A stretch of 63,823 nt of DNA, filler included. It is 7 parts of 7 records of this genome, joined end to end, with 100 filler letters (N's around TTAATTAATTAA, not from the genome) between each part and the next. Parts side by side here need not be neighbours in the genome. Positions count along the whole stretch, not along the records: positions 1 to 20,140 come from SRR31147125_13199; 6 more parts are not named here. One strand, given 5' to 3'. Every line of letters starts with the position of its first letter. Position 1 is the stretch's first letter. Shown here one piece after another: positions 4,965-29,503 of this stretch. The notes under the pieces were generated by a model that had not been told where the DNA came from, did no database searches, and saw only the letters and a list, made by a program, of their open reading frames with translations. A program made the position numbers and the translations under genes.

Positions 4965-6062
4965 CAGCCAGTCTGTAATTCGCCCCATAGTTCTTTTAAT
5001 CACCTGATCCATATTGTAATAGGTATACTCAGCCAATCTGCCGATAAACAGGTATTGGCCATCAGCTTCCAGCTTTTCTACCTCTTCCATATAGGCTGTT
5101 CGTTTATCCATATTTTCATCAGTCATGACAATATAGTAGGGCTCACCCTTCGGAAGGGGATATTCATAACAGACTGTTGTTTTTGGTGACTTCTCACCAC
5201 TGAGTTTCTTATATTCAGTAATGCGTGTCCAGTCATAATCCTCCGGATAATTGACAACAGCCGCCGGCTGGTAGGATTCCTGGTCCAGGGTCTTCAGCTC
5301 CAGCCGTAGTGATCTGTATTCAAGTTCTCCGAATTTGTAATTAAAAAATCTGTCCAACTCTCCGGTATATATAGTCAATTCCGGTGTAATCAGCGGCCGA
5401 ATATTAAAATAATCGGCTCCGGTCATAATGCTGATATTTTCATGATCTGCCATCCGTTCCATCATAGCGGTATAACCATTTATCGGAATCCCCTGATACT
5501 TGTCGGCAAAATAGCGGTCATCCCTGTTATCCCTGACGGGAATTCTTCTTGCCACTTCAGCGGAGAGTAATTCCGGAGCTCTGCCCCACTGTTTTTCCGT
5601 ATAGGGTTTAAAAAACATTTCATAGAGGCGTTCACCAACTTGTGAAACCACTGCGTCACGGAAATTTTCAGGCGGATCGGAAAACTTTGCTTTAGCAACA
5701 TCGGCATCAAGAACCGCGCGAACATCTGATACGGCAATTTCACGGCCGAAGATCTTGGACAAGGTATCGCGATTGATGGGAAACGGATAAAAGTTCCCCT
5801 GTGCATATGACAGCACCCGATGCTGGTACATGGTGAAATCGGTAAATGCTTGTACAAAGTCCCAGACTTCCTTATTCACTGTATGAAAAATATGGGGGCC
5901 GTAGGTATGTATTGTAATCCCATGTTCATTACGATAATCATGACAATGACCCGCTATATGTTTATTTCTTTCTACAACAAGTACTTTCTTACCGGAATCA
6001 GCCAGCAGGCGGGCACTGGTCAACCCAGCCAATCCAGCTCCTGCTATTACTACATCAAACAT
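4959..6062 (-). CDS. glf: UDP-galactopyranose mutase
   Basis: GAGLAG FAD motif, HTYGPHIFHT, YTEKQWG, RYFADKYQGIP, GRLAEYTYYNMDQ. Confidence 0.96.
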   Translation of the reverse strand: MFDVVIAGAGLAGLTSARLLADSGKKVLVVERNKHIAGHCHDYRNEHGITIHTYGPHIFHTVNKEVWDFVQAFTDFTMYQHRVLSYAQGNFYPFPINRDTLSKIFGREIAVSDVRAVLDADVAKAKFSDPPENFRDAVVSQVGERLYEMFFKPYTEKQWGRAPELLSAEVARRIPVRDNRDDRYFADKYQGIPINGYTAMMERMADHENISIMTGADYFNIRPLITPELTIYTGELDRFFNYKFGELEYRSLRLELKTLDQESYQPAAVVNYPEDYDWTRITEYKKLSGEKSPKTTVCYEYPLPKGEPYYIVMTDENMDKRTAYMEEVEKLEADGQYLFIGRLAEYTYYNMDQVIKRTMGRITDWLS

Positions 6063-6194
6063 GCAGACCACCTTTCTAGGAAAATTTAAAACATAATATC
6101 ATGAGCTAAGTATTCTTTCCATAGCAGTTAATTCTGAAAGTCCGCAAAGCTGCATTTACTCTGATTCTCCAAACTGAATCTACCGTATGATTTC

Positions 6195-6224
6195 TGGACA
6201 GAACCTTTAGTTTAGTGCTATACT
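6195..6224 (+). promoter_or_regulatory. Extended -10 promoter for 6232, probably leaderless
   Basis: TGGACA-N18-TATACT with TG extension, 7 nt to ATG, no SD. Confidence 0.55.
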
Positions 6225-6231
6225 CCCGCCA

Positions 6232-6633
6232 ATGTTTGAATCGCTTTTACAGTTCATACTCAACAAAGCCGAAGTCATACAGCAGCAGCATGCTGTTAAT
6301 CCCTGGATATATCTCAGTTTAGTCGTTGTATGCACAGGTCCTTACTATTTTTCCTTATTCAAATTTCTTAAATCCGTTGTAAAGAAAGAAGTCAATTCAG
6401 GTATAATCTGGCTGGTTATCTGCTTGACGATGATTGTTCTGCCTAATATCTATATTCTGATTTGGGGAAAGAATTTACCCTGGTATATCTATGCGGCTAT
6501 TGCCGGGCTGACCATTTTCGGAATCTTCGCACTTATACAGAAGGTCAGAGCCTCAAGGAAAAACGCGAGTAATGAGAAGAAATCAGACAATTCTGCTAAG
6601 ACAGACAATAGCCATCAACCACCCGTATCCTGA
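6232..6633 (+). CDS. Small membrane protein of unknown function (about 3 TM)
   Basis: Three hydrophobic segments and a polar tail; has its own promoter. Confidence 0.7.
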   Translation: MFESLLQFILNKAEVIQQQHAVNPWIYLSLVVVCTGPYYFSLFKFLKSVVKKEVNSGIIWLVICLTMIVLPNIYILIWGKNLPWYIYAAIAGLTIFGIFALIQKVRASRKNASNEKKSDNSAKTDNSHQPPVS

Positions 6634-6641
6634 ATCTGTAA

Positions 6642-7436
6642 TTACATATTCTCCGGCTGATCAACGGTTTTAACTGAATATCCTATCTGAGAAAAGCGGA
6701 TGTTGATTTCTGAATCAAGATTCCAATCAGTAACTACACTATTAATCATATCCGGCGCAGCATACGACATAAATGATGATTTATCGAATTTTGATGAGTC
6801 AACCAGCACATACGATGTATCGGCATCGGCAATCACGATTTCATTCATTTGTGATGTCCGCTCATCAGTTGTCATAAACCCCTTCTTCATGCTGATTGCA
6901 TCGGCCCCGAGAAAGGCTTTGGATATATGGAATTTCTTCAGGACTTCTTCGGCTACCGACCCGCAGACATCCAGCCGGGAAAGACGCACTTCTCCACCCA
7001 GAAGAATCACTTTGCAGTAGTTGGCAATCGGATCAAAATTTGCAAGAGAATTAGACAAGATCACGATATCACCTACTTCACCGGCCTTGATTCGATTCAC
7101 CAGACTTAGAACAAATTGATGTATAGTGGTACCTGAATCGCAGAAAATACGCTCGCCTGATTCAATAAGTGACGCACAGTAATTACCAATTGCCACTTTT
7201 TCATGCAGAAACCGCATCTCCTTACTATGGTATGAGTAATCGCTCAGGTACTGCTCTGAAAGCTGCACCCCGCCATGCACACGAATAACTTTCTGATTGG
7301 ATTCCAGCTTGGAACACATCCGTCTGGCAGTTGTCTCCGATATCGAGAGCCAGTCCGCCACCTGTTTTATATCGAGTCTTCTGTAGGTTTGAAGCAGTTC
7401 CAGCAGTTTCTGCTCCCGTTTCTCAATCTTTGACAT
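6642..7436 (-). CDS. DeoR/GlpR family transcriptional regulator
   Basis: HTH ISETTARRMC...RVHGG; sensor domain CDSGTT, LLGGE, DSSKF; AAGGAG SD before ATG 7436. Confidence 0.93.
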   Translation of the reverse strand: MSKIEKREQKLLELLQTYRRLDIKQVADWLSISETTARRMCSKLESNQKVIRVHGGVQLSEQYLSDYSYHSKEMRFLHEKVAIGNYCASLIESGERIFCDSGTTIHQFVLSLVNRIKAGEVGDIVILSNSLANFDPIANYCKVILLGGEVRLSRLDVCGSVAEEVLKKFHISKAFLGADAISMKKGFMTTDERTSQMNEIVIADADTSYVLVDSSKFDKSSFMSYAAPDMINSVVTDWNLDSEINIRFSQIGYSVKTVDQPENM

Positions 7437-7509
7437 TGTGTGCTCCTTAAAAACCTGATGCATCCATCAGAGTATGTACCGCAACATACCGTATTTTGCT
7501 CATACCGGT

Positions 7510-8955
7510 CTAGCCATTTTCCTGCATGGCTTGGAATTGACTATACCGTCCTTTCAGCAGTGCCGCCTGTTCCCCATTCGGTTCATATATCCGGGTATCA
7601 GATACAGGCTGCAGATTCACTCCGATTCCGCGGGCAGCTACAAGTGCGGCTCCTACTGCTCCTGCAGATTTTCCAAATCTGATGACTACCCGCATATTGA
7701 ACACATCGGCAATAATTTGAGGCCATACAGGACTATTTGTCGGTCCGCCAACCAGCAGGATTTCGTCTAGTGCATCTGAGACCATTCCCTTTGTCTCCAC
7801 CAGGTATTTCAATCTGAAAACTATCCCTTCCAACAGAGCACGGGCCGCGGCGGGAGTGCCCCCTGCAGAAACCAATGTCTCCAGAGTCTCCCGGCTGCAA
7901 TGTGTACTTATTGGGTCGATAACCGGTACCGCTGCTTCAATCGGACATCGCATGGCTAATTCATCAAAGATTTCCAGTGGATTTCTCTTCTCATCCGCCT
8001 CATTATTCAGATACCAGGCAATAAATTCATCTACCCATGCATTAAAGAATTTCCCCGCGCCTGTTACACTGAACATGCCGAACCAGCTGCCGCCAATGTT
8101 TTCTTCGTAGGGATCTATCAGCATACCGCGCTGTAATCCGGTTTCCCGATCCGGTAGGATTGTGCACCCCACCCAGGAAGTACCGCATGAAAGCATCAAT
8201 TGATTTGATGAATGCAGATTGACAGCCCGGGCGGCTCCCGGGTGATCGAATGAACCAAGCACGATGCTGGTATCACTTTCCAAACCGGTTTTTCCCCGTA
8301 AAGAGTCGCGAACCTTCCCGGCAAGTGTTCCGGTGGGTACTATTTCGGAGACTTGTTCGGGCTTCAGCCCTAATGTGCGAAAAAGTGGGAGGAATCGTGC
8401 TTTTTCAGCCTGATCAAAAAGATAGAGTGTAGATCCTGTGGAATCATCAACCATCCATTCACCGCACAGCAGATAGACAAGATAATCATTGTTCATAGCA
8501 ATACGGTTGGCCCCAAGCAGCTCAGGTCGATGCTTTTTCAACCACAGCAGTCTTCCCAGAGGAAACTGAGGGGAAAACGGCCACCCCGCCACGGCATGTA
8601 TCTTTTCGGGGCTTAATCCGCAGTCGGCAGCTGAAATTGTCCTGTCGGCAGGTGTTGTATCCAGCCAGCTGAAGATTGGGGTAATCGGTTCATTTTCATC
8701 ATTCAAAAACAGCAGATTACCGGATGCGGTCACCCACGACACTGCATTAATCCGATATCCCTGGCTGCTTAATTTCTTCAGGATTCTGAATACTTGATCA
8801 CAGTATGAATTCGCGTCTATTTCAACTACCGCCGGATTATCTGATTCCAGAAAAATAACATCTTCAGATGCAGAATCAATTATAGTTCCATTCTCACCCA
8901 GCAGCACGCCTTTCAGAGCAGTACTGCCGAGATCCAGTCCGATATAACCTTTCAT
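7510..8955 (-). CDS. FGGY family carbohydrate kinase
   Basis: GLDLGST, SWLD, GSFDH, SCGTS, VGGPTNSPVWPQIIADV; AGGAG SD favours ATG 8955. Confidence 0.88.
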   Translation of the reverse strand: MKGYIGLDLGSTALKGVLLGENGTIIDSASEDVIFLESDNPAVVEIDANSYCDQVFRILKKLSSQGYRINAVSWVTASGNLLFLNDENEPITPIFSWLDTTPADRTISAADCGLSPEKIHAVAGWPFSPQFPLGRLLWLKKHRPELLGANRIAMNNDYLVYLLCGEWMVDDSTGSTLYLFDQAEKARFLPLFRTLGLKPEQVSEIVPTGTLAGKVRDSLRGKTGLESDTSIVLGSFDHPGAARAVNLHSSNQLMLSCGTSWVGCTILPDRETGLQRGMLIDPYEENIGGSWFGMFSVTGAGKFFNAWVDEFIAWYLNNEADEKRNPLEIFDELAMRCPIEAAVPVIDPISTHCSRETLETLVSAGGTPAAARALLEGIVFRLKYLVETKGMVSDALDEILLVGGPTNSPVWPQIIADVFNMRVVIRFGKSAGAVGAALVAARGIGVNLQPVSDTRIYEPNGEQAALLKGRYSQFQAMQENG

Positions 8956-9060
8956 GTATTCCATACTCCTGTATAACGGTAATGGGTGGTATTCATGTAT
9001 ATGCTTGGGGTTCTGCCCCAGCTTATAATCGAAGTTTACCATAGATTTAGCCGCTTTGGT

Positions 9061-9132
9061 ACCATTTTCCTGATCATAATGAGCATTTCGTTCATTTTTT
9101 GCTTGACTCTATCATTTATAAGGGGTGATAAT
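9061..9132 (+). promoter_or_regulatory. Promoter for the isomerase operon with phased CATTT-type repeats upstream of and overlapping -35 (candidate DeoR operator)
   Basis: TTGACT(9103)-N18-GATAAT; CAT cores at 9063, 9075, 9084, 9093 and 9113. Confidence 0.45.
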
Positions 9133-9152
9133 GAGATTAATTATGGGTATGC

Positions 9153-9320
9153 TGAACTGACCGGAAGAGTGTGGGATTTAGTGGAAGGCTAATTATTGCC
9201 TGAAAAAGAAATCCATCATTTGTAATCGTACCAGTTTCAGCAAATATAATGTATATGTAATAACTACAGAGACCGAAAAGGATTGCGGAGATATTTCCCA
9301 CACTCTTCCAGTCAGTTACA
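9153..9320. mobile_element. MITE-like element or IS relic with 22-bp terminal inverted repeats
   Basis: AACTGACCGGAAGAGTGTGGGA (9155-9176) versus TCCCACACTCTTCCAGTCAGTT (9296-9317), one mismatch; TG...CA ends; no transposase and no clear target duplication. Confidence 0.55.
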
Positions 9321-9365
9321 ATAATAATTACGGTTTGCGAACCGGCAACGCAAAAGAGGTTACTA

Positions 9366-10754
9366 ATGAATATATCAATTGGTTTATTACCGCTGTATCT
9401 GGCCCTGTATGATGAAGTTGCCCCTGAGATGCGTAAGGAAATCGATGCCTTTTACCTGACCATTGCAGAACAGCTCAAAGAACGCGGATGTACTGTCTCA
9501 ACAATACCCATCTGCCGACTGGAAAACGAATTCAAACAAGCCGTCAATCAATTTGAACAAGACGACGTGGACAGTATTGTTACCTTGCACATGGCATATT
9601 CCCCATCGCTTGAATCCATACAGCCATTACTCACCACAAAGCTGCCTCTTGTTGTATTGAACACAACTCCCGATTTTTCATTCAGTCCCGAACAGGAGGC
9701 CTCCAGAATCTCTTTTAACCACGGCATCCACGGTGTTCAGGACATGTGCAGCATGCTGCTGAGAAATAAGAGAAATTACTTCATTGAATCGGGGCACTGG
9801 CAGAAATCTGACGTAATTGATCGTGTCGTGAAAATCGTAAAAACTGCCGCAGCAGCAGACTCGTTCCTCGGCTCAAAGATAGGAATTATAGGAGAACCAT
9901 TCAAAGGGATGGGAGATTTTCAAATTTCACCGGAGCATCTGAAACGTGCATACGATATAGATATCATTCAATTTCAAGATGGAAAATCAATTAAAGAGAT
10001 CTCAACCGATAAGGATATCGATCAAGAATTAAACCATTATCGCAATTTTCTGGATATATCGGATGTCCCGCAAGAGACCATGCAGGAGAATGCGGCAACT
10101 TCCATCATCCTGAGAGATTGGGTGAATGAGCAGAAGCTGGATGGATTTACCTGCAATTTTCTCTCAGTGAATAAAAAAGGTGCAGTAAAACGTGTTCCAT
10201 TTCTGTTTGCGGCTGTCGGCATGTATGAGGGGCTGGGATATGCCGGGGAAGGCGATGTTCTGACCGCGGCCCTGGTTGCATCACTGCTGAAGTTGAATCC
10301 GCTTTCCACATTTACCGAGATATTTTGTCCGGATTGGGAAAATGACCGCCTATTCTTCAGTCATATGGGAGAACTAAATCCACGCATCTGCCCCGAAACG
10401 GCAAAACTGCTGGCCAAACCCTATGGATACAGCGACGCGCTGCCGCCGGTGTATACAACCGGGCGTTATATGGCCGGGAAAGCCCTGCTGGTGAACCTGG
10501 TACCGCTGCATCCGGATCATTTCCGTCTTATCATCTGTCCCGTAACGCTGCATGATGAAGATGACGCGCCATTTGAAAATGTAGTCAGAGGCTGGATGAC
10601 ATCATCACTCCCGATCAGCGCGTTCCTTACTGAATACAGCAAACTGGGAGGAACACATCATTCAGGATTAATTTACGATGAATCCGTCGAAACATTGAAA
10701 AGATTCGGCACTCAGCTTGGATGGGATGTCCAGGTTATAGGCGATGAGAACTAG
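9366..10754 (+). CDS. L-arabinose/L-fucose isomerase family protein, substrate uncertain
   Basis: AraA-type metal-ligand motifs GYAGEGD, FTE, SHMGE and GGTHH; HGIHGVQD. Confidence 0.8.
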   Translation: MNISIGLLPLYLALYDEVAPEMRKEIDAFYLTIAEQLKERGCTVSTIPICRLENEFKQAVNQFEQDDVDSIVTLHMAYSPSLESIQPLLTTKLPLVVLNTTPDFSFSPEQEASRISFNHGIHGVQDMCSMLLRNKRNYFIESGHWQKSDVIDRVVKIVKTAAAADSFLGSKIGIIGEPFKGMGDFQISPEHLKRAYDIDIIQFQDGKSIKEISTDKDIDQELNHYRNFLDISDVPQETMQENAATSIILRDWVNEQKLDGFTCNFLSVNKKGAVKRVPFLFAAVGMYEGLGYAGEGDVLTAALVASLLKLNPLSTFTEIFCPDWENDRLFFSHMGELNPRICPETAKLLAKPYGYSDALPPVYTTGRYMAGKALLVNLVPLHPDHFRLIICPVTLHDEDDAPFENVVRGWMTSSLPISAFLTEYSKLGGTHHSGLIYDESVETLKRFGTQLGWDVQVIGDEN

Positions 10755-10795
10755 GGGGATCACTCCCACCAGCAACAGCGAATGGAGGTTCGGGT

Positions 10796-11857
10796 ATGAA
10801 AGAATTGTTTGCAATAAAAGATATTGATAAACGTGTTTATGAAGAGGAACTTGCTGATTTTCTGCCGCAACAAATGATAGATGCCCATACGCACCTCTGG
10901 CTCAATAAGTATCGCTATGAGAACCCACATGCCGTGAAAAGAGCTGTTACATGGCCTGCGTTGGTTGCTCCGCAAAGCCCGGTAGAGGAACTGCTGGAAA
11001 CATACAGATTACTGTTTCCAGGTAAGAAGGTTACCCCGCTGGTATTTTCAAGCGTGAAACGTGGTGATGATATTGAAGCTCAGAATGCGTATATCTCGGA
11101 AAGTGCCCGTCGTTTCAATCTACCCTCCCTGCTCTACACCTTTCCGGAATGGTCTGCAGGGGATCTGTACAACAAAATAATTGAGGGAAAATTTCTGGGA
11201 ATCAAAGTCTATCTGAATCTGGCACCGGAATATATTCCCGAAAAAGAGATACGAATCTTTGACTTTATTCCCCACCACCAGCTTGAAATGCTGCATCAGC
11301 ACCATATGATCTTGATGCTGCATATCCCGCGTGACGGGAGATTAGGAGATCCGGTGAATCTTGCCCAAATGCTGGAAATTGAGGAAAAATACCCAAATAT
11401 TCATGTGATTTATGCCCATATCGGTCGCGCGTACTGCGAAGTGGATTTTGGAGAAGCTTTCACAATACTCAAAAACACGAAACGTCTGGTGATGGATTTC
11501 AGCGCGAACACCAATGCCGAAGCCATGTACCGTGCCCTTGCGTGTATCGGTCCCGACCGTTTTTTGTTCGGATCTGATATGCCGATTCTGAGAATGCGGA
11601 TGCGTCGAATCTGTGAAAACGGCCATTACATCAATATCGTGCCTAAAGGTTTGTATGGGGATGTCTCAGGCGATCCAAACATGCGGGAAGTATCCGGTGC
11701 GGAAGCCGATGAACTGACATTCTTCATGTATGAGGAACTGCGTTCCTTCAAGAGGGCCGCCGAACGATTTGGTCTGAGCGAGACGGATAAGGAGAAGGTC
11801 TTTTACGGTAACGCGCAAGGTATTATTGATGATGTGAAGGCGCGTCTCAATTACTGA
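10796..11857 (+). CDS. Amidohydrolase family 2 protein
   Basis: IDAHTH, GIK, LHIP, AHIG and FGSD motifs. Confidence 0.85.
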   Translation: MKELFAIKDIDKRVYEEELADFLPQQMIDAHTHLWLNKYRYENPHAVKRAVTWPALVAPQSPVEELLETYRLLFPGKKVTPLVFSSVKRGDDIEAQNAYISESARRFNLPSLLYTFPEWSAGDLYNKIIEGKFLGIKVYLNLAPEYIPEKEIRIFDFIPHHQLEMLHQHHMILMLHIPRDGRLGDPVNLAQMLEIEEKYPNIHVIYAHIGRAYCEVDFGEAFTILKNTKRLVMDFSANTNAEAMYRALACIGPDRFLFGSDMPILRMRMRRICENGHYINIVPKGLYGDVSGDPNMREVSGAEADELTFFMYEELRSFKRAAERFGLSETDKEKVFYGNAQGIIDDVKARLNY

Positions 11858-12971
11858 TATGTACCTGATCCTGGAAATACAAATCGGATAGAAATCGATC
11901 GAGTAGAGTATATATATCCCGATATCTCTCATTTACCAGAAGTTCCTCAGTGCACGGAAATTCAACGATCATCTTGCTGCCTGTTCCGGCAAGGTATTCA
12001 ATATCGGGCAGAGCCGTATCAATATCCGTTCCCGGACGTACTTTCAGAATTACCGACAGATCTCCCAGAGCTTCCGCGACCTCGCTTCCCATATTGGGAT
12101 TCGGATCTGTCAGGTTGCCGGGAAGCGCAAAGTCGATCATTTTCAGATTGTTCAGCACCCCCAGTTTCGGCATTGTTTTTGTCCAATTCCCGCAGGAGTG
12201 TAACGTCAGCCCGCCGAATTCATTCGAAAGCTGATTCAGATAGGGAAATGAAAATTGTTCATTAAGATCGGGCGATGAGAACACCATATTGTCATCTGAA
12301 ATTCCGATTCCGCCGAGAAAGGGATATCCTACAAAACCATGTCCCGGAGATGCCAGTAACTCTTTTCCTATATGCTCTATCTGCACCCTGGAAAATTCGA
12401 TTTTCAGTTCGGTGATTGTTTTGAGAAATTGATGGATGATGTCTGGATCGGTATACATACCGGTCAGGAATTCCACGGTATCAAGAATGAGTGTGGCTGT
12501 ATCCTGCGGGGATTGGGTATCGGTCAGGCAGATTGGAATCTGTCCGTCCGTGCGCTCTTTCAGCAGGTCGATAGCATCAAGCACCATGCCCATAATCGGA
12601 GATTTCCGGTAATCGGGGTATGCAGTATCTGCAATCTCCTGAAGGGAGGAAAAGCAGTGGACGGTATCCGGTGCGCCGCCGGTCTCCCACAAATAGGTTG
12701 ATCCAAACGCACTGGCATAGACACCGCTGCCGATCCATGGCTCCAGAAACGGCACGTCATCACAATAATCAAGTGACAGCTGGGTTTCCAGATAACTCAG
12801 ATTGTTCTCAAGAATGGTATCAAGTGTCCGGCAGGAGGTGAACAACGCGTGGCTGACGCGGGGAATGATGAGAAATTTTGTTTCACCACTAGGGTTGAAG
12901 AAATCCTTCAGCTTCCCTTCCCGTTCTTCCATCCTTTTTTTATGCAAATCGATTACTGCTTGTATTTCCAT
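11847..12971 (-). CDS. Uroporphyrinogen decarboxylase/MtaA-like (URO-D/CIMS superfamily) protein
   Basis: TDTQSPQDTA, ISDD, SP..EQFSFPY and a LHSCG Zn-type HxC motif. Confidence 0.75.
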   Translation of the reverse strand: MEIQAVIDLHKKRMEEREGKLKDFFNPSGETKFLIIPRVSHALFTSCRTLDTILENNLSYLETQLSLDYCDDVPFLEPWIGSGVYASAFGSTYLWETGGAPDTVHCFSSLQEIADTAYPDYRKSPIMGMVLDAIDLLKERTDGQIPICLTDTQSPQDTATLILDTVEFLTGMYTDPDIIHQFLKTITELKIEFSRVQIEHIGKELLASPGHGFVGYPFLGGIGISDDNMVFSSPDLNEQFSFPYLNQLSNEFGGLTLHSCGNWTKTMPKLGVLNNLKMIDFALPGNLTDPNPNMGSEVAEALGDLSVILKVRPGTDIDTALPDIEYLAGTGSKMIVEFPCTEELLVNERYRDIYTLLDRFLSDLYFQDQVHISN

Positions 12972-13036
12972 AACACACCTGCTTATACGATTTATGACTA
13001 CGAGTTTTTTTAATCCAGCAATTACGGTTTACCCTA

Positions 13037-13876
13037 TCAGCCTTTAATACCGCCAGCCAGCATACCCCGCATGATTTGCCGCTGAAAGATGAAGAACACG
13101 ATGATCGGAATGGCGATGTAATAGAAAACGCCTGCCATCAATTCACCAAGCAGAATATTTTGCTGAATATCCACATAGGCACCATTCAGCTTAACTGCAA
13201 GAGTGGTTTTCAGGGCACTTAAGAAGAGTGACGGCATAATATAGTTCTGCCAGGTAAACTGAAACGCGAATATGGCTGTTATGACCGTGCCGGAATTTAC
13301 CAGCGGCAGCATTATTCTGAAGAAAATGGCAAACCTGCCCGCACCATCAATTCGAGCCGATTCTTCAAATGAGGCTGGTATCGTTGAAAAGAACTGGCGA
13401 TAGAGATAGATCATGAACGGTGCGCCGCCAAGTCCATAGAGCAGCCACAGGATATGTTTATCCGTAAGTCCCAAGTTTTTCACCAGCAGATAAAACGGAA
13501 TCAGGGTGATCACTACCGGTATCATGATGGATGACAGCACAATCGTAAAAAATATGCGGTTCTCCCGTATCTGAAAACGCGCCAGGGCGTAGCCGGCCAT
13601 CCCGCTGGAAAGTGTACAGGCAAAAGTATAGAGAGCCGCAACCACCAGTGAATTGTAGACATAGCGTAGATAGTTGATGCGTGTCAGGGCACTCACATAA
13701 TTCTCAAAGTGCAGCTTTTCGGGAAACAGCCTGGGCGACTGCTTGAAAATTTCCGCTTCGGTTTTTAACGAGACGCTGAGCATACTGAGCAGCGGTAGAA
13801 AAAAGAAGATCAAAATAGTAATAACCACTATATATTTGATAATCATTATAATTATTTTTCTCGATTTATAGCTCAT
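13037..13876 (-). CDS. Carbohydrate ABC transporter permease (MalG-type)
   Basis: EAA loop FEESARIDGA; 6 TM. Confidence 0.93.
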   Translation of the reverse strand: MSYKSRKIIIMIIKYIVVITILIFFFLPLLSMLSVSLKTEAEIFKQSPRLFPEKLHFENYVSALTRINYLRYVYNSLVVAALYTFACTLSSGMAGYALARFQIRENRIFFTIVLSSIMIPVVITLIPFYLLVKNLGLTDKHILWLLYGLGGAPFMIYLYRQFFSTIPASFEESARIDGAGRFAIFFRIMLPLVNSGTVITAIFAFQFTWQNYIMPSLFLSALKTTLAVKLNGAYVDIQQNILLGELMAGVFYYIAIPIIVFFIFQRQIMRGMLAGGIKG

Positions 13877-14830
13877 TTAATCCTCCATTTCCGAGTAGGT
13901 CGCTTTCTTGACCAGGTAGGAATAAATAAGACTGAAAATCAGTACGATAACAAAGGTAATCCACAAGACGGCAAAACCGTATGCCAGTCGTCCCCTGTTG
14001 AATATGAGGTCATATCCCTTGGACAGGATAAAAAATGTCTCTTTGGGCGGAGTCTCAAGTGTGACTTGAGCTCCTCGTATCGCGGTAGGATTCAGGATAT
14101 ACGGCAGGATAAATATCTGCATACCGTAAATAAAGCTGACTACCAGCTGAAATGCAATAAAGGGGCTGAGAAACGGCAGTGTCACGACTCTGAATCGTTT
14201 CAAGTAGCTTGCACCGTCCACCGATGCCGCGTCATACAGTTCTCCCGGTATGGTAGAGAGTCCGCCGATAAATATCAGCATACTCCAACCGACGCGCCAG
14301 AAACCGGCGGTGAGAATAGTGAACAGTCCGTGTTCGCCCATCCAGCTTATGTTGTCTTTGATGATACCGAGATTTGTCAGCAGCAGATTAAAGGTGCCGA
14401 CATTTTTATCAAAGAAAACCCGCAGAATCCATCCAGTGGCAACGATCGGGATTACATACGGCAGATAAAACATAACCCGGAAGAATCCCTGCCCTTTCAT
14501 TTTCTGATCCACAAGCAGTGACAGCAGCAGACCAAGGGATACCTGAATTACGGTATTCAGCAATGCGTAGAGCAAGGTGGTGTAGATTGCATAGAATACG
14601 GCTGGATCCTGAAAGGCATCGATATAGTTTTTAAAACCGACAAATTTCACTTTGACTGAGAATGCCATCTGGTTTGTCAGGCTGACCCTGAATCCCCACA
14701 GGATCGGAATTAATTGGAAAACGGCAAAACCGATTATCCATAACATCATAAAAATGTAAAATGATTTACGTTTTTCACGCACATTCATTCTGCCAGGATT
14801 CACCGGTCGTTTCATATGCCTCTCCCCCAT
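13877..14830 (-). CDS. Carbohydrate ABC transporter permease (MalF-type)
   Basis: FVGFKNY, YLPYVIP, ELYDAASVDGAS. Confidence 0.93.
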   Translation of the reverse strand: MGERHMKRPVNPGRMNVREKRKSFYIFMMLWIIGFAVFQLIPILWGFRVSLTNQMAFSVKVKFVGFKNYIDAFQDPAVFYAIYTTLLYALLNTVIQVSLGLLLSLLVDQKMKGQGFFRVMFYLPYVIPIVATGWILRVFFDKNVGTFNLLLTNLGIIKDNISWMGEHGLFTILTAGFWRVGWSMLIFIGGLSTIPGELYDAASVDGASYLKRFRVVTLPFLSPFIAFQLVVSFIYGMQIFILPYILNPTAIRGAQVTLETPPKETFFILSKGYDLIFNRGRLAYGFAVLWITFVIVLIFSLIYSYLVKKATYSEMED

Positions 14831-14975
14831 TATAAAGCTTCGTTACCATAGGAACCTCTTTCAAAAAAGAATAGTGAAAGAGCCTTAAATAACTGTATTA
14901 TATCATCTTATTGTGAAGTTCGCACCTTTCCCGCAGCTACATATATGTATTGGTATGCTCACAGGTGCTTGAAAT

Positions 14976-15001
14976 ATGCCGGTACAGAATTGTACCGGCA
15001 T
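14976..15001 (-). terminator. Intercistronic stem-loop after the binding-protein gene
   Basis: Perfect ATGCCGGTACA-GAAT-TGTACCGGCAT; weak U-tract, so it may be an mRNA stabiliser rather than a terminator. Confidence 0.6.
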
Positions 15002-15055
15002 CAAAATATGTCAGATTAAGAAATCCGAAACGAAATTCTTTTCGCCATTCGAATC

Positions 15056-16333
15056 CTATTCGCCAACTTCTTCCCGTCCAAGCTGGAGAGCTTCATTCAT
15101 GCCTTCAATGAACATATCAACTGCTTCATCAATTGTTACTTCGTCATTCAGATATGCTCTCTGAGCTTCAGTCCAGTAACCAGCGTAAACGCTGTTTCTT
15201 GCATACCAGGATGTCTGAGGAGGCAGCATGTACTTAACTTCCTCAAGGGCAATATCTTTTCTGGTCTGATCAAATTCATTGCCTGTAGGAAGCAGAGGCT
15301 GCAGTGATTTCAGCGGCGGAATACCCCATCCGGTTTCAGCTCGTTCCACACCTGGTTCATCGGCCATGTACCATTCAAATACCTTGAATGCCTGGTCGGG
15401 ATATTTTGTCTGGGAACTGACGATAAATCCTGTGGCACCAAGACTATTGGTTACACGTTTTCCACCATCTTCCATGACAGGAGCAGGAGCCCAGCCGAAC
15501 ATATCGGCATACCCTTCAACTCCGGCACATGAGGCACCATACCAGTACCCCAGCTGTACCATAGCGATATTTCCAGCCTGGAAAGCACTTCCGGCCCAGC
15601 CGCTCAATGGGTTTTCGAGGTTGCTGGAAATGCCTTCTTTACGCAGATTCAGGAAGTATTTCCATATATCACGTACAGCAGCTTCGTTATTCATCTCAGT
15701 CCTGTCTGCATTATGAAGCTCTTTTCCGAGCATGTATGCCATGTCGCTGGCAATGAAAAGGAACCAGTTTCCGTGTACTTCAGTACCAAAAACACCAGCC
15801 CCCGGGTCTGCAAGTTCAGCTGATAACGCATAGAATTCATCGTAGGTCATCGGTTCAGTTGCACTTGGATAAGAAATGCCGGCTTTATCAAAGATCTCTT
15901 TATTATAGGTAATAGCTGTTACATTGTTGTAGTCTTTCGGAAGACCATACCAGCTGCCCTCGAAATTGTAAGCACCGGAACCGTCAACATCGATATCATT
16001 TTTCAATTTATCGCTGTTCTCGAAATATTCGGTCAGATCCAGCAGCATACCGCGTTTAACGAAATAGGGAATTTCCGCTCCGCTTCCCAGGTTGATGATA
16101 TCCGGTGATGAACCGGCGATATAATCAGCAATCCATTTTGTCTGGTCCTGTTCTTCACGAACCACCTGAATGTCGGGATTTGCGGAATTCCATGATTCAA
16201 TCCATGCATCGGTGAAGTCACTGGCCGGTGACATAACACGCAGCGTAACCGGTCCATCAGCCTCTTCGCTTCCACCGGCCCACACAGCCATTGAAAAAGC
16301 GATCAGCAAGCATATAACTAACAGTTTTTTCAT
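15056..16333 (-). CDS. Sugar ABC transporter substrate-binding protein
   Basis: Spirochaete-style signal MKKLL...WAGGSEE; YGLP, YNKEIFDKAG, FQAGNIAM. Confidence 0.92.
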   Translation of the reverse strand: MKKLLVICLLIAFSMAVWAGGSEEADGPVTLRVMSPASDFTDAWIESWNSANPDIQVVREEQDQTKWIADYIAGSSPDIINLGSGAEIPYFVKRGMLLDLTEYFENSDKLKNDIDVDGSGAYNFEGSWYGLPKDYNNVTAITYNKEIFDKAGISYPSATEPMTYDEFYALSAELADPGAGVFGTEVHGNWFLFIASDMAYMLGKELHNADRTEMNNEAAVRDIWKYFLNLRKEGISSNLENPLSGWAGSAFQAGNIAMVQLGYWYGASCAGVEGYADMFGWAPAPVMEDGGKRVTNSLGATGFIVSSQTKYPDQAFKVFEWYMADEPGVERAETGWGIPPLKSLQPLLPTGNEFDQTRKDIALEEVKYMLPPQTSWYARNSVYAGYWTEAQRAYLNDEVTIDEAVDMFIEGMNEALQLGREEVGE

Positions 16334-16393
16334 ATAATCCTCCTAGATTATGTAAGATGTATCTATAATGACGTTATCACCTGAATAGTGAGT

Positions 16394-16580
16394 TGTCAAT
16401 GTTTTATTTGTCATTTCAATCATATTTTGACTATTTCTGCCATTTTAATTCATTTTTGCTTATATATAGCGATATTTTCCACCAGTATTGACCTAATCTG
16501 ACTATCTAACTTTCGTTTCAACCGTTTTTTGATCGTTTTAGCCATACTTACCTTGACACATGATTTTTTTCCTGTATGAT
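16394..16580. promoter_or_regulatory. Divergent promoters (ABC operon and aminotransferase) with roughly 10-bp phased YCRTTT repeats
   Basis: TTGACA on the minus strand (16394-16399) and TTGACA-N16-TATGAT on plus (16553-16580); repeats at 16411, 16421, 16441, 16451, 16513, 16522 and 16533. Confidence 0.5.
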
Positions 16581-16705
16581 AGATATATGTAACCATCTGT
16601 TCCAAAATCTGTCGATGGTTTTTCCGTATTCAAGCGCATGATGCAGGGGTATTGCATTATGCCAATGCATTAAAACGGATAAGGAAAAAGAAAAAGGGGA
16701 AAAGT

Positions 16706-18268
16706 ATGGGAGTATCGGCATCACAATTCAAAAATCTCTCTTTATCACTATGCGACATTTTAGGCGAAGGCTATATACATGGCATATGTAAAGCTAAAGC
16801 GGTACTGGAGCATGCCAATGAAGAAGATTATCTGAAAATTGCCCATAAGAAAGTAGATTTTTACCCTGAGGCATATCAGAAACGTTTAATCGAACTGCTT
16901 CCCAGCATTGGAAAAAAAGTACTCGACACACCGCTGCAGACCTCAACAGGAGGATCTTCGACTAACGCGTTTAATGCCGCGTTTTCAGGAGGGCAATCAC
17001 CACTTGCCGGTAAAGGATATTTCAAGATTACGGAAGACGGGACTTTACAGGCCATTACAAAAAGCGAACATTATCATGCCCCGCTCGGCCATGACTTTCC
17101 CGGATACCAATTGATTGAATACGCGAAACAGCTGGGAATCTCCAATGTTACTCACAATAATACGCGGGGATTCATTACCCGTCTGCTGGAAACAAAACTG
17201 GTAGAAATAGCCAATGGGTTATACGGCACTGATATAAATATTGACGCATTCAGGGAAAGCGCACCTGAACATGCCATGACTAAGGTAATCAATCTGCAGA
17301 CAGGCAGTCTGGCAGTAGAGGCCGGATTGAAAATGATGATGGCCCGCTTCTATGTGTCTGATCCCGGTATGGGGATAACACCGGAATTCTGCAATAAAAT
17401 CCCGGTATTTATTGTCATGGCTGATTTAGATGGCGGAAAACAGGCCAATTATCACGGTACAACCATGCTTACCCAAACTATGAGGGATCTCTGGCCTGGT
17501 TTGTACGAAAAATTCGAACAGGCCGAAGCCTATAAAGTTGTCGCGGCCCCGCTCAATGATTTCGATGGGTTCAAACAGTTAATTGACCAATATGACGGCG
17601 GCAAGTATAAGATTGCCGGTTTCTTCCATGAGCTGATTCTGATGAATTACGGCGGAATCAAGATTGAGAAAGATTTTCTGCAGGCCGCCTACGCGCTCTG
17701 CCGGGAGCACGATATCCCGACACTCGTTGACGAAATACAATCCTGTCTCTGGGCTCCCGATCTGTTTCTGTTCAGGGAGTATGAACTGGAACCGGATTTT
17801 GTCTCCGTGGGCAAAGGATTTCCAGGAGGCCAGTACGCATCCTCTAAGATCATGCTTACGAAAAGGATGGACAATCTGAATCAATTCGGAGCTCTGGTTA
17901 CAAACGGCCAGGAAGAACTGGCATCACTCGCCTATTTAATCACCATTATTTTTGCTTTTGAGAATAGGTCTGTTACCAGGGATTTGGGAGCCTATTACGA
18001 GTCTGAATTGAAAAAACTGGCGGCCGTGTACAAGCATATTATCAAGAAAATTGAAGGTCAGCGCCATCTCGCTTCCATCGTATTTGAGTCCGCAACCACA
18101 GCAGCTGAATTTTCCGGAAAAGTGCGGAAAAGAGGATACGACATCAGTGCCCAGACCTATAAGGCAAACTGTCCGCCCGCGGCTCTCACAAAGATACCGC
18201 TGATAGCGGATAAACAGCTGATTGATACGTTTATCGCGTGTATGGACTCGATTTTACAGACCTATTAG
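16706..18268 (+). CDS. Class III PLP-dependent aminotransferase-fold protein with a long N-terminal extension
   Basis: TGSLAVEAGLK, NYHG, LVDEIQSC, and PLP lysine in DFVSVGKGFPGG. Confidence 0.85.
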   Translation: MGVSASQFKNLSLSLCDILGEGYIHGICKAKAVLEHANEEDYLKIAHKKVDFYPEAYQKRLIELLPSIGKKVLDTPLQTSTGGSSTNAFNAAFSGGQSPLAGKGYFKITEDGTLQAITKSEHYHAPLGHDFPGYQLIEYAKQLGISNVTHNNTRGFITRLLETKLVEIANGLYGTDINIDAFRESAPEHAMTKVINLQTGSLAVEAGLKMMMARFYVSDPGMGITPEFCNKIPVFIVMADLDGGKQANYHGTTMLTQTMRDLWPGLYEKFEQAEAYKVVAAPLNDFDGFKQLIDQYDGGKYKIAGFFHELILMNYGGIKIEKDFLQAAYALCREHDIPTLVDEIQSCLWAPDLFLFREYELEPDFVSVGKGFPGGQYASSKIMLTKRMDNLNQFGALVTNGQEELASLAYLITIIFAFENRSVTRDLGAYYESELKKLAAVYKHIIKKIEGQRHLASIVFESATTAAEFSGKVRKRGYDISAQTYKANCPPAALTKIPLIADKQLIDTFIACMDSILQTY

Positions 18269-18322: not shown

Positions 18323-19297
18323 CTATTTTGTGACCTCTCTCCTCCCGAGCCAGCTTTTCACAAACCCCGAAACCAGCAGCTGCCATGGGTGATAAAAAAG
18401 CAGCGGCAGCAGAGCCATGCCCAGTAGTTCCGGTGAATCAACAAAAAATGTCGACAGCAGCGGAACTCCCATAGCCAGCGTTTTCTGGGGTGCCGTATAG
18501 AGAATGGTGATGGTATTCTCGCGGGAAAAATTGTTTATTCTTGCCAGCAGATAGCTGATTCCCAGTAGAATGAAAAATGAAACAGCCAGATAGAGGAACG
18601 GATAGACCATGGAAGGCAGCATACCTCTGAAATCGGGGTCCGCGGCAGATTTGGAAAAATTGATAAACACGATCAGCAGCAGCGATATATTGGTAATCAG
18701 CTTCAGCTTACTCTTCAACGGCTTTTCCGGAATGCTGAAATGCCTGATAACCTGACCGACAATGATCGGAATCAGAATCTTGATACCGATACTCGTAATT
18801 ACGGAACCGATATCAGTCGTAACGGCAATCTGGTCATTCGTCTTCAGAAAAAAGGAGAGCAGCAGAGGTGATATAAATACTCCGAGCAGATTCGCCAGGG
18901 CGGCATTAAAAACCGCACCAACCGTATTACCATTTGAGGACTGTGTAAACAGCACGCAGGAAGAAATCGTTGTGGGTAGACACGCCAGGGCAATAATCCC
19001 CACCCTGATTTCCGGAGAAAATACTCCTTCAAACAACAAAAGTGTGACGACAAAGTAGAACGGTACCAGAACAAAGATAAAAACCTGCAGAAAAATATGC
19101 AGTTTCATATCCTTTAATCCGTTTTTTATTGATTCTGTAGGGATCGTGTATCCGGTAATCAGGAATATCAGAATAATCAGTATTGTCGTGGTAACTTTAC
19201 CAAAACTGATTGCTGTACCGATTTCCGGAATGAAAAATCCAACTACAAGCAGTACAATCAATCCAACCAGAAACCAGTTCTTTTTCAAAAATGTCAT
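18323..19297 (-). CDS. Bile acid:sodium symporter (SBF-like) family transporter
   Basis: CLPTTISS, GN..GAVFNA, QKTLAMGVP, PLLFYHPWQL. Confidence 0.88.
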   Translation of the reverse strand: MTFLKKNWFLVGLIVLLVVGFFIPEIGTAISFGKVTTTILIILIFLITGYTIPTESIKNGLKDMKLHIFLQVFIFVLVPFYFVVTLLLFEGVFSPEIRVGIIALACLPTTISSCVLFTQSSNGNTVGAVFNAALANLLGVFISPLLLSFFLKTNDQIAVTTDIGSVITSIGIKILIPIIVGQVIRHFSIPEKPLKSKLKLITNISLLLIVFINFSKSAADPDFRGMLPSMVYPFLYLAVSFFILLGISYLLARINNFSRENTITILYTAPQKTLAMGVPLLSTFFVDSPELLGMALLPLLFYHPWQLLVSGFVKSWLGRREVTK

Positions 19298-19504
19298 ATT
19301 CACACTCACATCCACAATTTTCAACTTTCAGGTTCAACTGATAAAGTCCAGCAAACCTCGCGACTATCATAGAATAGTTATTTCTTGCAATCAACACCCT
19401 CAGCCACTATAATTCCTATATTCGAATTCACTAAACATACCGACAAATAGTTGGATTCCTGATAGATGTTTACAAAATCGGGAAATACCGCAAAGGGAGC
19501 GATA

Positions 19505-20140
19505 ATGGAAAAACTCAGCAAACGCATCAAATTCGGGTTTGGCATCGGGGATTTGGGGGGAAATCTCTTTTTTACCATCATCGGTTTCTATCTGCTCTAC
19601 TATTTGACGGATGTCGTACATCTTTCGGCCGCGCTTTCCGGCACGGTGCTTATGATCGGTAAAATATGGGATGCCGTTACCGACCCGCTGACCGGGTATC
19701 TATCTGATCGCACCCGATCACGCTGGGGACGCCGCCGACCCTATATGTTTGTCGGTTCCATCATTGCTTTTTTTGCCATGATTCTGATGTTTACAAAGCC
19801 AAGCATGAGCAGTCAAAGCTCCATATTTTTTCTGATGACTTTCTATTTCTGTCTGCTGAATACGGCCTACACATTGGTCAATATTCCATACGCAGCCCTG
19901 CTGCCGGAGATTACCCAGGACTTTGATCAGCGGACAACTCTCACCGGTTACCGCATGAGTTTTGCGGTAGTTGGTACGTTCATGGGAGCCGGCGCGGTCA
20001 TGCCGATCGTCGGACTTTTTGCCAAGGAAGCTCTAGGCTGGTCGATCATGAGCGGCATCATGGGCGGCATCATGCTGGCCACCGCCTTAATCACCATCTG
20101 GGCAATTCGTGAACCGCAACATAAAGAACGGGAAAAAGGT
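19505..20140 (+). CDS. GPH family (MelB-like) glycoside:cation symporter, 3' truncated
   Basis: GFGIGDLG, WDAVTDP, SDRTRSRWGRRRPY, NIPY; cut by the spacer. Confidence 0.9.
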
Positions 20141-20240
20141 NNNNNNNNNNNNNNNNNNNNNNNNNNNNNNNNNNNNNNNNNNNNTTAATTAATTAANNNN
20201 NNNNNNNNNNNNNNNNNNNNNNNNNNNNNNNNNNNNNNNN
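20141..20240. other. Artificial contig spacer
   Basis: N run with TTAATTAATTAA; identical spacers at 29227-29326, 37478-37577, 43172-43271, 49220-49319 and 57036-57135. Confidence 0.98.
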
Positions 20241-22231: not shown

Positions 22232-22306
22232 AAAAATTCCTTTTCATGAAAAAAGCAGATAAACATTTGAAACATTCATCCGCTTTTTCGAATTTAATAT
22301 TACTTA

Positions 22307-23581: not shown

Positions 23582-23958
23582 AACACTACCTCCAAAAAAT
23601 TTTTTTGTTATTACTAATTTAATAGCAAATATATAAAATTAAATTATTATCTAATTATGATTCGTATAAAAAACAAAGTTAAGTATTCTGTTATAAAAGC
23701 GACTTTAGTTTTTTTAGTTTCCATATTATGTTGTATTCTTAGCTGAAAATTGTTACAATTTGTACAATATAATCATAGATTAATTATTCTGGATTGTAAA
23801 ATTCATTATTTGCATAATAAATAGAGAGGATTTATTTAACCATGCTTATATGAACCCTTATAATTAATGAAATTTATAGCCCAAACTATCTAAAATAGCA
23901 TATCCAAACTTATTATTGCAAAAACATTAATTATAAAACCAAAATAACAATTATGTAT

Positions 23959-25140: not shown

Positions 25141-25200
25141 AATTTTTCTCCTGTATTCTTTTCAATATTTTTATAACCTACTTGATAATTTTTATGTAGA

Positions 25201-25229
25201 TTGACTATCCTCAAACGCCATGCTAAAAT
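25201..25229 (+). promoter_or_regulatory. sigma70 promoter of lysR
   Basis: TTGACT-N17-TAAAAT with TG extension. Confidence 0.6.
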
Positions 25230-25262
25230 TATTTAAAATACTAATATGAAAGAAGCCTTGCT

Positions 25263-26165: not shown

Positions 26166-26184
26166 TAGCGCAATACCGTTATAG

Positions 26185-26838: not shown

Positions 26839-26839
26839 A

Positions 26840-27490: not shown

Positions 27491-27516
27491 TTCACTCTCT
27501 CACTTTCAATGTTTTT

Positions 27517-29490: not shown

Positions 29491-29503
29491 AAATCCCCCT
29501 TGA

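Follow-up and report, generated by a model that had tools for sequence, protein, structure and literature searches.

A Conserved Sugar Locus with an Uncharacterised Class-III Pyridoxal Phosphate Enzyme: A Candidate Catabolic System for an Amine-Bearing Sugar

Introduction

Among described bacterial systems, the closest to the locus considered here are the routes for arabinose (AraA/AraB), fucose (FucI/FucK/FucA, with the DeoR-type regulator FucR) and rhamnose (RhaA/RhaB/RhaD). The locus lies between positions 6642 and 19324 of a DNA stretch of 63,823 nucleotides (the window, approximately 64 kb, consisting of seven parts from seven records of one genome joined end to end; positions 1 to 20,140 come from record SRR31147125_13199). 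On comparison, it appears to resemble these routes supplemented with a nitrogen-removing front end, and by membership tests it belongs to none of them. It shares with them an AraA-fold isomerase in which four metal/catalytic positions are kept, an FGGY-family kinase, a DeoR-family repressor and divergent transcription units; aldolases are a further likeness, but they occur in related loci and not in the window. Unlike the known enzymes, however, its isomerase and kinase remain far below the respective family cut-offs (84 vs. 622 and 161 vs. 380 bits), and the locus adds a class-III pyridoxal phosphate (PLP) enzyme, a metal-dependent enzyme of the Amidohydro_2 family and a URO-D/MtaA-like protein, none of which has a place in those routes. 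The locus is a real sugar-import and breakdown cluster under repressor control and, on balance, we favour the view that it covers transport and the early steps of a catabolic system that is conserved yet uncharacterised and that acts on an amine-bearing sugar.

Three other groups of systems are relevant in this context. In textbook amino-sugar catabolism (NagA/NagB, AgaA/AgaS), nitrogen is removed only after phosphorylation, via NagB/AgaS-type deaminases. The present locus would share with these routes the removal of nitrogen before glycolytic entry; however, transamination is proposed here instead of isomerising deamination, and Pfam and NCBIfam scans revealed no NagA, NagB or AgaS homolog in the window, although one related locus (L135) contains a weakly matching NagB-like gene (115 vs. 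326 bits). In taurine breakdown, taurine:pyruvate aminotransferase (Tpa) works with alanine dehydrogenase (Ald), i.e., the amine is transferred to pyruvate, alanine is recycled and ammonia is released. A class-III aminotransferase gene likewise stands beside a true alanine dehydrogenase gene in three loci related to ours, whereas the other partners here are sugar enzymes and a ketoreductase-type oxidoreductase of the Gfo/Idh/MocA family (GFO), the window lacks alanine dehydrogenase, and the aminotransferase belongs to a distinct family, extended at the N-terminus by approximately 100 residues, for which no named NCBIfam model passes its cut-off. Finally, NtdC/NtdA (kanosamine), GnnA/GnnB and WbpB/WbpE are pairs of a GFO dehydrogenase and an aminotransferase that make 3-amino sugars; they serve biosynthesis, their substrates are nucleotide or phosphate sugars, and their aminotransferases are of the DegT type, not class III. 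The adjoining GFO and PLP aminotransferase genes of the family described below, and a weak match of this GFO to UDP-GlcNAc 3-dehydrogenase, recall these pairs operating in reverse, whereas the context here (transporters, repressor, kinase and aldolases) points to catabolism. The initial annotation of this DNA knew of no characterised pathway that unites a class-III aminotransferase and a URO-D-like enzyme with an isomerase-kinase route and, indeed, a literature search that covered sources other than subscription journals found none with this combination.

Conserved Linkage of the Aminotransferase with Sugar Enzymes

The window aminotransferase (16706-18268, plus strand) belongs to a family of approximately 516 residues, homologs of which were used to fetch 80 metagenome loci representing 57 lineages at 90% identity. 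A second set of 80 loci, taken from species-representative genomes, was obtained with the URO-D-like protein as the alignment query. Partners were counted within the fetched flanks, and 41 of the 80 aminotransferase-seeded contigs were shorter than 10 kb. GFO was the most frequent partner of the aminotransferase (25 of the 57 lineages), followed by AraA-like isomerases (20), DeoR regulators (19) and FGGY kinases (17); the same Amidohydro_2 family as in the window (45-62% identity) was found in 15 lineages, DhnA-type class-I and class-II ketose-bisphosphate aldolases in five and four, respectively, and alanine dehydrogenase in three. At least one of GFO, AraA-like isomerase, FGGY kinase and Amidohydro_2 protein accompanied the aminotransferase in 36 lineages. 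Eighteen loci measured 15 kb or more; of these, 15 had at least one such partner and ten had both isomerase and kinase. The URO-D-seeded set, which provides a rough background from similar organisms, contained AraA-like genes in only 3 of 80 loci and GFO genes in 4 of 80, compared with 27 and 36 of 80, respectively, in the aminotransferase-seeded set, and the aminotransferase itself in a single locus. Thus, the aminotransferase is linked to AraA-like, FGGY, Amidohydro_2 and DeoR genes in many lineages, and the failure of homologs to co-occur across genomes, which the initial annotation had named as the outcome that would speak against its proposal, was not observed. Carriers include uncultured sediment anaerobes (Planctomycetota, Lentisphaerota, Spirochaetota and Marinimicrobia-like bacteria) and a human-gut metagenome lineage (L144 type).

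In the window, the genes between 6642 and 19324 form five transcription units. The FGGY-family sugar kinase (7510-9042; Pfam FGGY_N and FGGY_C) and the DeoR-family repressor (6642-7463; HTH_DeoR and DeoRC) constitute a minus-strand unit running from 9042 to 6642, with the repressor as its second gene. The AraA-like aldose-ketose isomerase (9366-10754; AraA C-terminal and central Pfam domains) and the Amidohydro_2 protein (10796-11857; PF04909) form a plus-strand unit. The transporter unit, on the minus strand from 16333 to 11847, comprises an extracellular solute-binding protein (15056-16333; SBP_bac_1/8), two CUT1-type ABC permeases with BPD_transp_1 domains (13877-14830, MalF/UgpA-like, and 13037-13876, MalG/UgpE-like) and the URO-D/MtaA-fold protein (11847-12971; PF01208), this operon and the Amidohydro_2 gene sharing 11 nucleotides where their ends overlap. 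The aminotransferase gene (PF00202) is a monocistronic plus-strand unit, and an SBF-like transporter of the bile-acid:Na+ symporter superfamily (18323-19324, minus strand; PF13593, 242 bits) is convergent to it. ORF, Pfam and NCBIfam calls therefore bear out the gene list and the divergent arrangement given in the initial annotation, including the position of the URO-D-like gene as the last of the ABC operon, behind the binding protein and the two permeases.

This layout recurs in metagenome-assembled genomes (MAGs) of Spirochaetes. In G001, the binding protein gene (86% identity) is divergent from the aminotransferase gene (71%), exactly as in the window. In L014 (Treponemataceae), a single operon encodes binding protein, two permeases, AraA-like isomerase, Amidohydro_2 protein, FGGY kinase, aminotransferase and URO-D-like protein, and its 522-residue class-III gene product is 50% identical over the full length to that of the window. 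L082 has the order URO-D, permease, permease and binding protein, followed by aminotransferase and SBF-like transporter as separate units, while a 5.4-kb contig of G002 carries an AraA-like gene next to an FGGY-DeoR-GFO unit. The SBF-like transporter gene is a conserved neighbour, which follows the aminotransferase gene in L081 and L082 (80-82% identity). Loci L001, L002 and L003 share the transporter, the URO-D-like and the Amidohydro_2 genes; the AraA-like gene was also found in L001 and L003, but no FGGY gene in either. Only the FGGY and URO-D-like genes were found in L019. At the genome level, five Spirochaete genomes with a window-type URO-D gene were searched, in four of which the transporter operon was seen. 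Four of the five encode the aminotransferase, which was not found in G003, and four contain an ortholog (55-59% identity) of the GFO type that adjoins the aminotransferase, which was not found in G001.

In the wider family, the aminotransferase gene is usually followed directly by that of GFO and sometimes by that of alanine dehydrogenase. In L140, L135 and L111, the aminotransferase gene directly adjoins or overlaps that of GFO, whereas 4-nucleotide overlaps connect the FGGY, Amidohydro_2 and AraA-like genes in L107 and L113. The full triad of aminotransferase, GFO and alanine dehydrogenase is present in L124 (in the order aminotransferase, GFO, alanine dehydrogenase and class-II aldolase) and in L105. 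The dehydrogenase beside the aminotransferase in L113, L105 and L124 is a true alanine dehydrogenase (TIGR00518, 520 bits against a cut-off of 392). The best, albeit weak, family matches of GFO are levoglucosan, UDP-GlcNAc 3- and inositol 2-dehydrogenases, all of which act on ring secondary alcohols. A histidinol dehydrogenase-like gene of L113 scores as a true HisD (464 vs. 244 bits) and was set aside as an unrelated neighbour. A tagatose/galactosamine route, suggested by the aldolase families, was also rejected: the class-II aldolases reach only the generic ketose-bisphosphate subfamily, and the class-I aldolases are DhnA/ADH-synthase-like, not LacD-like.

Enzymes of the Locus

The window enzymes were scored against Pfam and NCBIfam models and subjected to sequence, profile and fold searches of the PDB. 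Each of them falls inside its Pfam family, yet none reaches the cut-off of a named NCBIfam function; no close solved structure was found for any of them in the PDB, and Atlas look-ups of the proteins returned generic names only.

The open reading frame of the aminotransferase opens at TTG 16652; however, ATG 16706 sits behind a purine-rich AAAGGGG and is most likely the start, giving a predicted protein of 520 residues, the length of its relatives. The protein belongs to the class-III fold, since it passes the PF00202 gathering cut-off (60.9 vs. 30.5 bits) and keeps the PLP lysine and aspartate. Indeed, 37 aligned sequences from several phyla, whose mean column identity is 61%, show no variation in the PLP-lysine motif VGK370GFPGG or in D342-E-I-Q, and the extra N-terminal third of the family contains many invariant His and Asn residues. 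Its closest metagenome homologs are 68-73% identical. None of the named class-III models (ArgD, ornithine, GABA and putrescine aminotransferases, BioA, HemL, EctB and PbfA) reaches its cut-off; among the 25 models shown of 56 matched, all far below cut-off, the best is an argD subfamily (66 vs. 410 bits). The best PDB sequence match has an E-value of 1.3e-9, and source databases label the family merely as a 'class III-fold PLP-dependent enzyme'.

The isomerase is AraA-like without being an AraA ortholog: the AraA C-terminal and central domains exceed their Pfam cut-offs, the N-terminal domain does not (22.4 bits; cut-off 24), the AraA equivalog NF002795 gives 84.4 bits of the 622 required, and AraA chains in the PDB match at just E 5e-17 to 1e-4. 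Nonetheless, E295, E318, H333 and H432 align with E306, E333, H350 and H450 of E. coli AraA (2ajt_A), which we take to be its metal/catalytic residues. Together with the PLP motifs and Lys370 of the aminotransferase, these four kept positions make the enzymes look active. The best NCBIfam match of the FGGY kinase is XylB with 161 bits, followed by AI-2 kinase (103), FucK (53.5), ribulokinase (48) and RhaB (41), against equivalog cut-offs of 380 for XylB, 471 for FucK, 528 for RhaB and 428-583 for AraB. Homologs of the isomerase (40-54% identity) and of the kinase (33-46%) adjoin the aminotransferase family.

The Amidohydro_2 protein is a divergent, putatively metal-dependent TIM-barrel enzyme. 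Its domain score (PF04909, 58.5 vs. 26.4 bits) and amidohydrolase-type metal ligands (HxH, H, H and D) place it within the family. D29, K137, H208, R211 and D261 are invariant and H31, H33 and H176 nearly so, in the pattern HxH...K...H...H...D. A search of 1.84 billion proteins at E ≤ 1e-3 recovered just 849 representative clusters, so that the family is small; NCBIfam gave no match. Although the predicted model is of high quality (predicted local distance difference test, pLDDT, 96.3), solved decarboxylases, hydratases and lactonases resemble it with template modelling (TM) scores of only about 0.5 and Foldseek identities of 11-16%; phmmer against the PDB yielded 0 matches, and the best hits of a profile search were the uncharacterised 3cjp and 3ij6 (E about 1e-11 over approximately 80 residues). 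No characterised sugar lactonase or ACMSD-type decarboxylase gave a close match in sequence or fold, and assignment to these enzymes is not supported; likewise, sequence, profile and fold searches placed neither this protein nor the URO-D-like protein in a functional subfamily. A natural FGGY-Amidohydro_2 fusion (P0245, 778 residues) exists, and the Amidohydro_2 protein, tightly coupled to both kinase and isomerase, would act in the pathway that these enzymes serve. Furthermore, fusions with a GNAT acetyltransferase (P0241, 54% identical to the window protein, P0307 and P0370) suggest that it may handle an amine or N-acetyl compound.

The URO-D/MtaA-like Protein

The MtaA/CmuA and HemE families offer the nearest comparison for the URO-D-like protein, which shares with them a TIM-barrel fold and an H-x-C motif that resembles the zinc site of MtaA, a site of the type H-x-C...Cys. 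PF01208 matches with 50.5 bits (cut-off 23.9), but only over residues 84-199, i.e., profile positions 76-196 of 346. The HxC motif noticed in the initial annotation is real: H258-S-C260 is invariant in all 41 aligned homologs. The predicted model (pLDDT 93.5) is most similar to the M. mazei MtaA-like methyltransferase 4ay7/4ay8 (TM 0.61-0.68), followed by URO-D (approximately 0.54) and MetE. However, identity to these solved folds is 12-17%, sequence searches of the PDB gave no match, MtaA-type models remain far below cut-off (52 vs. 244, 38 vs. 235 and 32 vs. 400 bits), and no third or later Cys is conserved in the alignment of 41 sequences. Pfam detected no corrinoid (B12-binding) family among the 320 neighbour proteins scanned or the 51 window proteins, and no cobalamin riboswitch was found in the window, where Rfam gave no match at all.

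Also unlike MtaA/CmuA and HemE, the protein occurs in sugar-utilisation loci. The order permease, permease, URO-D is kept in L001, L002 and L082. Over the 80 loci of the URO-D-seeded set, its contexts include GntR/LacI-type regulators, SSF/MFS transporters, FGGY kinases, glycoside hydrolases, sulfatases, tandem URO-D paralogs and M15 peptidases, and it accompanies the aminotransferase in only 4 of 57 lineages. The URO-D/MtaA-like protein is thus a variable accessory of the system, probably metal-dependent.

Transport, Regulation and Intergenic Regions

Of a CUT1 importer, the locus encodes the SBP_bac_1 binding protein and the two permeases, which correspond to the sugar ABC transporter listed in the initial annotation; protein scans of the window revealed no ABC ATPase gene within the locus. 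CUT1 importers often use a shared ATPase encoded elsewhere. The permeases are 71-93% identical to those of L001, L002, L003, L014 and L082, and the binding protein is 68-86% identical to those of L002, L003, L014, L082 and L162. The best NCBIfam match of the DeoR protein is GlpR (133 vs. 300 bits), no equivalog cut-off being reached, and its orthologs in related loci are 44-65% identical.

Two divergent control regions separate the units. The first (9043-9365) lies between the FGGY-DeoR and the AraA-like/Amidohydro_2 units, and the second (16334-16705) between the binding-protein operon and the aminotransferase gene. Each contains a well-matching sigma-70-like site, TTGACT-18-GATAAT at 9103-9132 (10 of 12 matches) and TTGACA-16-TATGAT at 16553-16580 (11 of 12), both on the plus strand; it should be noted that such sites are no more numerous in the region overall than in shuffled sequences (22 vs. 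a mean of 25.7). The divergent promoters of the initial annotation thus find some support, but the similar repeat that they were said to share is no better than chance. The two spacers have an A/T-rich word in common, TTCATTTTT(T)GCTT (at 9091 and 16449); however, 80 of 200 first-order Markov resamples reach their best local similarity, and neither of the two orthologous binding-protein/aminotransferase spacers examined (L082 and L162) contains the word. A shared operator motif was therefore rejected. A binding-protein-proximal block of 16334-16705, TTGTCAATGTTT..., is common to L082 and L162.

The first control region also holds a strongly structured leader (9153-9319, plus strand), situated between the promoter-like site and the AraA-like start at 9366. 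Inverted arms of 22 nucleotides (9155-9176 and 9296-9317; 95% complementary, with one mismatch) enclose an element of approximately 165 nucleotides, whose predicted RNA fold of -57.3 kcal/mol (z = -5.9) was equalled by none of 200 shuffles. The element is present as a single copy in the window, does not occur in 165 fetched loci examined for it and matches nothing in Rfam; it might act as a cis-regulatory leader for the isomerase operon or else represent a small insertion with inverted repeats.

Genomic Surroundings and Variant Loci

At the edge of the locus, a 240-residue ORF (19466-20188, plus strand) matches only the N-terminal half (1-203 of 437) of GPH/MelB-type sugar:cation symporters and, with approximately 120 nucleotides to the next gene, looks like a truncated transporter gene. 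The following genes encode two BaiCD/OYE-type Fe-S flavoenzymes (20309-22231 and 27517-29208, the second of which matches Oxidored_FMN from profile position 85 only), an MFS transporter, a thiolase, a LysR regulator and two CoA-transferase subunits; this stretch (20309-29208) is a separate module, apparently one that reduces acyl-CoA or enoate compounds.

The host appears to be a bacterium of the Marinimicrobia/FCB group. The best named relatives of its MiaA (37526-38491) are Candidatus Marinimicrobia (60-72% identity), and a protein with a type IX secretion system (T9SS) tail (Por_Secre_tail) is encoded at 40626-43094. The sugar locus, however, is closest to genes of Spirochaetales MAGs, as seen for its permeases, and its G+C content is higher (0.43-0.47 in 6000-18000 vs. 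0.29-0.39 in 22000-38000). This hints at horizontal acquisition of the sugar locus, although a binning error of the MAG may also be the cause.

Two of the fetched loci deserve mention as variants. L003 (1916-12245, from a Spirochaetales MAG) contains a sulfatase (SGSH_C), DeoR, the transporter, AraA-like, URO-D-like and Amidohydro_2 genes and a DhnA-type aldolase; the contig lacks an FGGY kinase, the window query did not find the aminotransferase in the G003 genome, and the sugar module of L003 may serve a sulfated substrate. The aminotransferase locus of L115 (3829-20449, a metagenome contig with a G+C content of 0.34) resembles a polysaccharide-utilisation locus and also holds T9SS-tailed proteins, two GH78-type rhamnosidase-like genes, a creatininase-family amidohydrolase gene and a trehalase/GH63-like gene.

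Proposed Pathway

From the gene content, conservation, linkage and catalytic residues described above, we infer a substrate class, an order of steps, an amino acceptor and a direction. The CUT1 ABC transporter would import an amine-bearing compound, whose amino group would be transferred by the 520-residue class-III PLP enzyme, most likely to pyruvate, leaving a carbonyl. The AraA-like isomerase would then convert the resulting sugar from aldose to ketose, and the FGGY kinase would phosphorylate the ketose, with repression of the units by the DeoR protein lasting until an intermediate builds up. Across the wider family, GFO would reduce the keto-sugar after transamination and before isomerisation, and a class-II or DhnA-type aldolase would cleave the ketose phosphate. 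Such an arrangement would close a cycle in which the amine is passed on to form alanine, alanine dehydrogenase converts alanine to pyruvate, ammonia and NADH, and NADH serves to reduce the keto-sugar. The net reaction, R-NH2 + H2O -> R-OH + NH3, would be a hydrolytic deamination that is neutral with respect to redox and cosubstrates.

The choice of pyruvate as the acceptor, and of a nitrogen-containing substrate, follows from the true alanine dehydrogenase beside the aminotransferase in three loci. The nitrogen-containing substrate suggested in the initial annotation is thereby supported, together with the conserved linkage, at the level of a probable substrate class. Its further proposal, deamination to an aldose, stands as one option only; the wider family is better explained by a keto-sugar that is subsequently reduced. 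GFO, the commonest partner, and the recurring aldolases had been missed. Hexosamine-related glycosidases in some members of the family, namely a glycoside hydrolase family 2 (GH2) enzyme that carries an exo-beta-D-glucosaminidase Ig domain and is encoded immediately behind the aminotransferase in L115, and GH109-type proteins in L107, L085 and L111, point, together with the GNAT fusions, to an amine substrate. A catabolic direction is suggested because of the transporters, DeoR, kinases, aldolases and neighbouring glycosidases.

It is tempting to extend this scheme, although the extension is tentative and, taken as a whole, rather unlikely: the PLP family, abutting GFO and alanine dehydrogenase might form a cofactor-balanced cascade that converts free amino sugars to neutral sugars, representing an undescribed and widespread route, in which the Amidohydro_2 and URO-D/MtaA-fold proteins might perform new reactions on keto- or amino-sugar intermediates.

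Several observations weigh against the system as proposed. Searches with tblastn (E ≤ 1e-3) revealed neither GFO nor alanine dehydrogenase (four GFO queries and one alanine dehydrogenase query) nor an aldolase in the 64-kb window. Because these enzymes are lacking, the full scheme is borrowed from relatives, and the window copy would have to be served by genes elsewhere in the genome or represent a reduced variant. The amino acceptor is weakly grounded, since alanine dehydrogenase adjoins the aminotransferase in just 3 of the 57 lineages. In 21 of the 57, mostly on short contigs, none of the counted partners is present, and the genes of the fetched loci are uncurated longest-ORF calls. The sugar module can evidently work without the aminotransferase, because G003/L003 keeps the module while the aminotransferase was not found with the query used. 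Finally, operation of the triad in reverse, from alcohol to amine, is chemically possible.

Alternative Explanations

The proposed order of steps could differ if the amine were terminal. In a sugar of the 6-amino-6-deoxy-hexose type, the amino group might be kept through the isomerase, kinase and aldolase steps, the aminotransferase would deaminate a three-carbon amino-aldehyde and GFO would reduce or oxidise the remainder, in parallel with the sulfoglycolysis of sulfoquinovose. The recurrence of isomerase, FGGY kinase and aldolase with the aminotransferase is consistent with this order, which would satisfy both the AraA-type isomerase (a free C2 hydroxyl) and the aldolase (C3/C4 hydroxyls), as are the GFO gene immediately after the aminotransferase gene and the SBF-type organic-anion carrier conserved in the window, L081 and L082. 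However, ring-carbon amines are what the hexosamine-type glycosidases near some members suggest, and we know of no natural, abundant 6-amino-6-deoxy sugar; this explanation is improbable. An amino-polyol, which we rate as no more and no less probable, would make the reductase dispensable: from a 1- or 2-amino-deoxy-alditol, the aminotransferase would directly yield an aldose or ketose for the isomerase and kinase. Indeed, the window, L014, L113 and L142 combine aminotransferase, isomerase, kinase and Amidohydro_2 genes with no adjacent GFO, and GabT1, a class-III aminotransferase of deoxynojirimycin biosynthesis, reportedly interconverts a ketose phosphate and an amino-alditol phosphate. Nevertheless, GFO is the commonest partner across the family and is encoded in four of the five genomes of the closest relatives of the window, in G002 directly behind FGGY-DeoR, and amino-alditols are, to our knowledge, not abundant environmental substrates.

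If this were an ordinary operon for a neutral sugar (arabinose-, galactose- or fucose-like), the aminotransferase and URO-D-like genes would be unrelated neighbours; the isomerase, FGGY kinase and DeoR do form a classic neutral-sugar layout, the window aminotransferase is a separate monocistronic unit, and L003 has the sugar module with no aminotransferase found. Yet the aminotransferase gene lies inside the operon in L014, L107, L113, L135, L124 and L144, the linkage extends over 36 of 57 lineages from distant phyla, and no enzyme reaches the AraA, XylB, FucK or RhaB model cut-offs; such an operon is thus decidedly unlikely. Least probable, and by our estimate very much so, is an O- or N-methylated sugar that the URO-D/MtaA-like protein, as a zinc-dependent methyltransferase, would demethylate before metabolism, a reading close to the de-blocking step of the initial annotation. 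The MtaA-like methyltransferase as closest solved fold, the invariant H-x-C motif and the MtaA-type identity of the weak NCBIfam matches speak for it. This step is nonetheless not borne out, given that all MtaA models remain far below cut-off, that a third conserved Cys, a corrinoid protein and a cobalamin riboswitch were all missing from the material searched, and that the family occurs in very mixed sugar contexts and beside only the few aminotransferase lineages counted above.

Significance

Amino sugars store large amounts of organic nitrogen and carbon in sediments, in soils and in the gut. If the catabolic system for an amine-bearing sugar proposed here is correct, a transaminase route, balanced by a ketoreductase and alanine dehydrogenase, would differ from the textbook manner of nitrogen removal. 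The hypothesis can be put to a direct test, since a lineage from a human-gut metagenome carries a related cluster. The enzyme trio would also represent a natural counterpart of the engineered cascades used in alcohol-amine biocatalysis. Moreover, functions would be assigned to four generically annotated families, i.e., the well-conserved class-III PLP family, the AraA-like isomerase family, the small Amidohydro_2 family and the URO-D-fold proteins, the last of which often occur in the sugar loci of Planctomycetes, Lentisphaerae, Chloroflexi and Spirochaetes.

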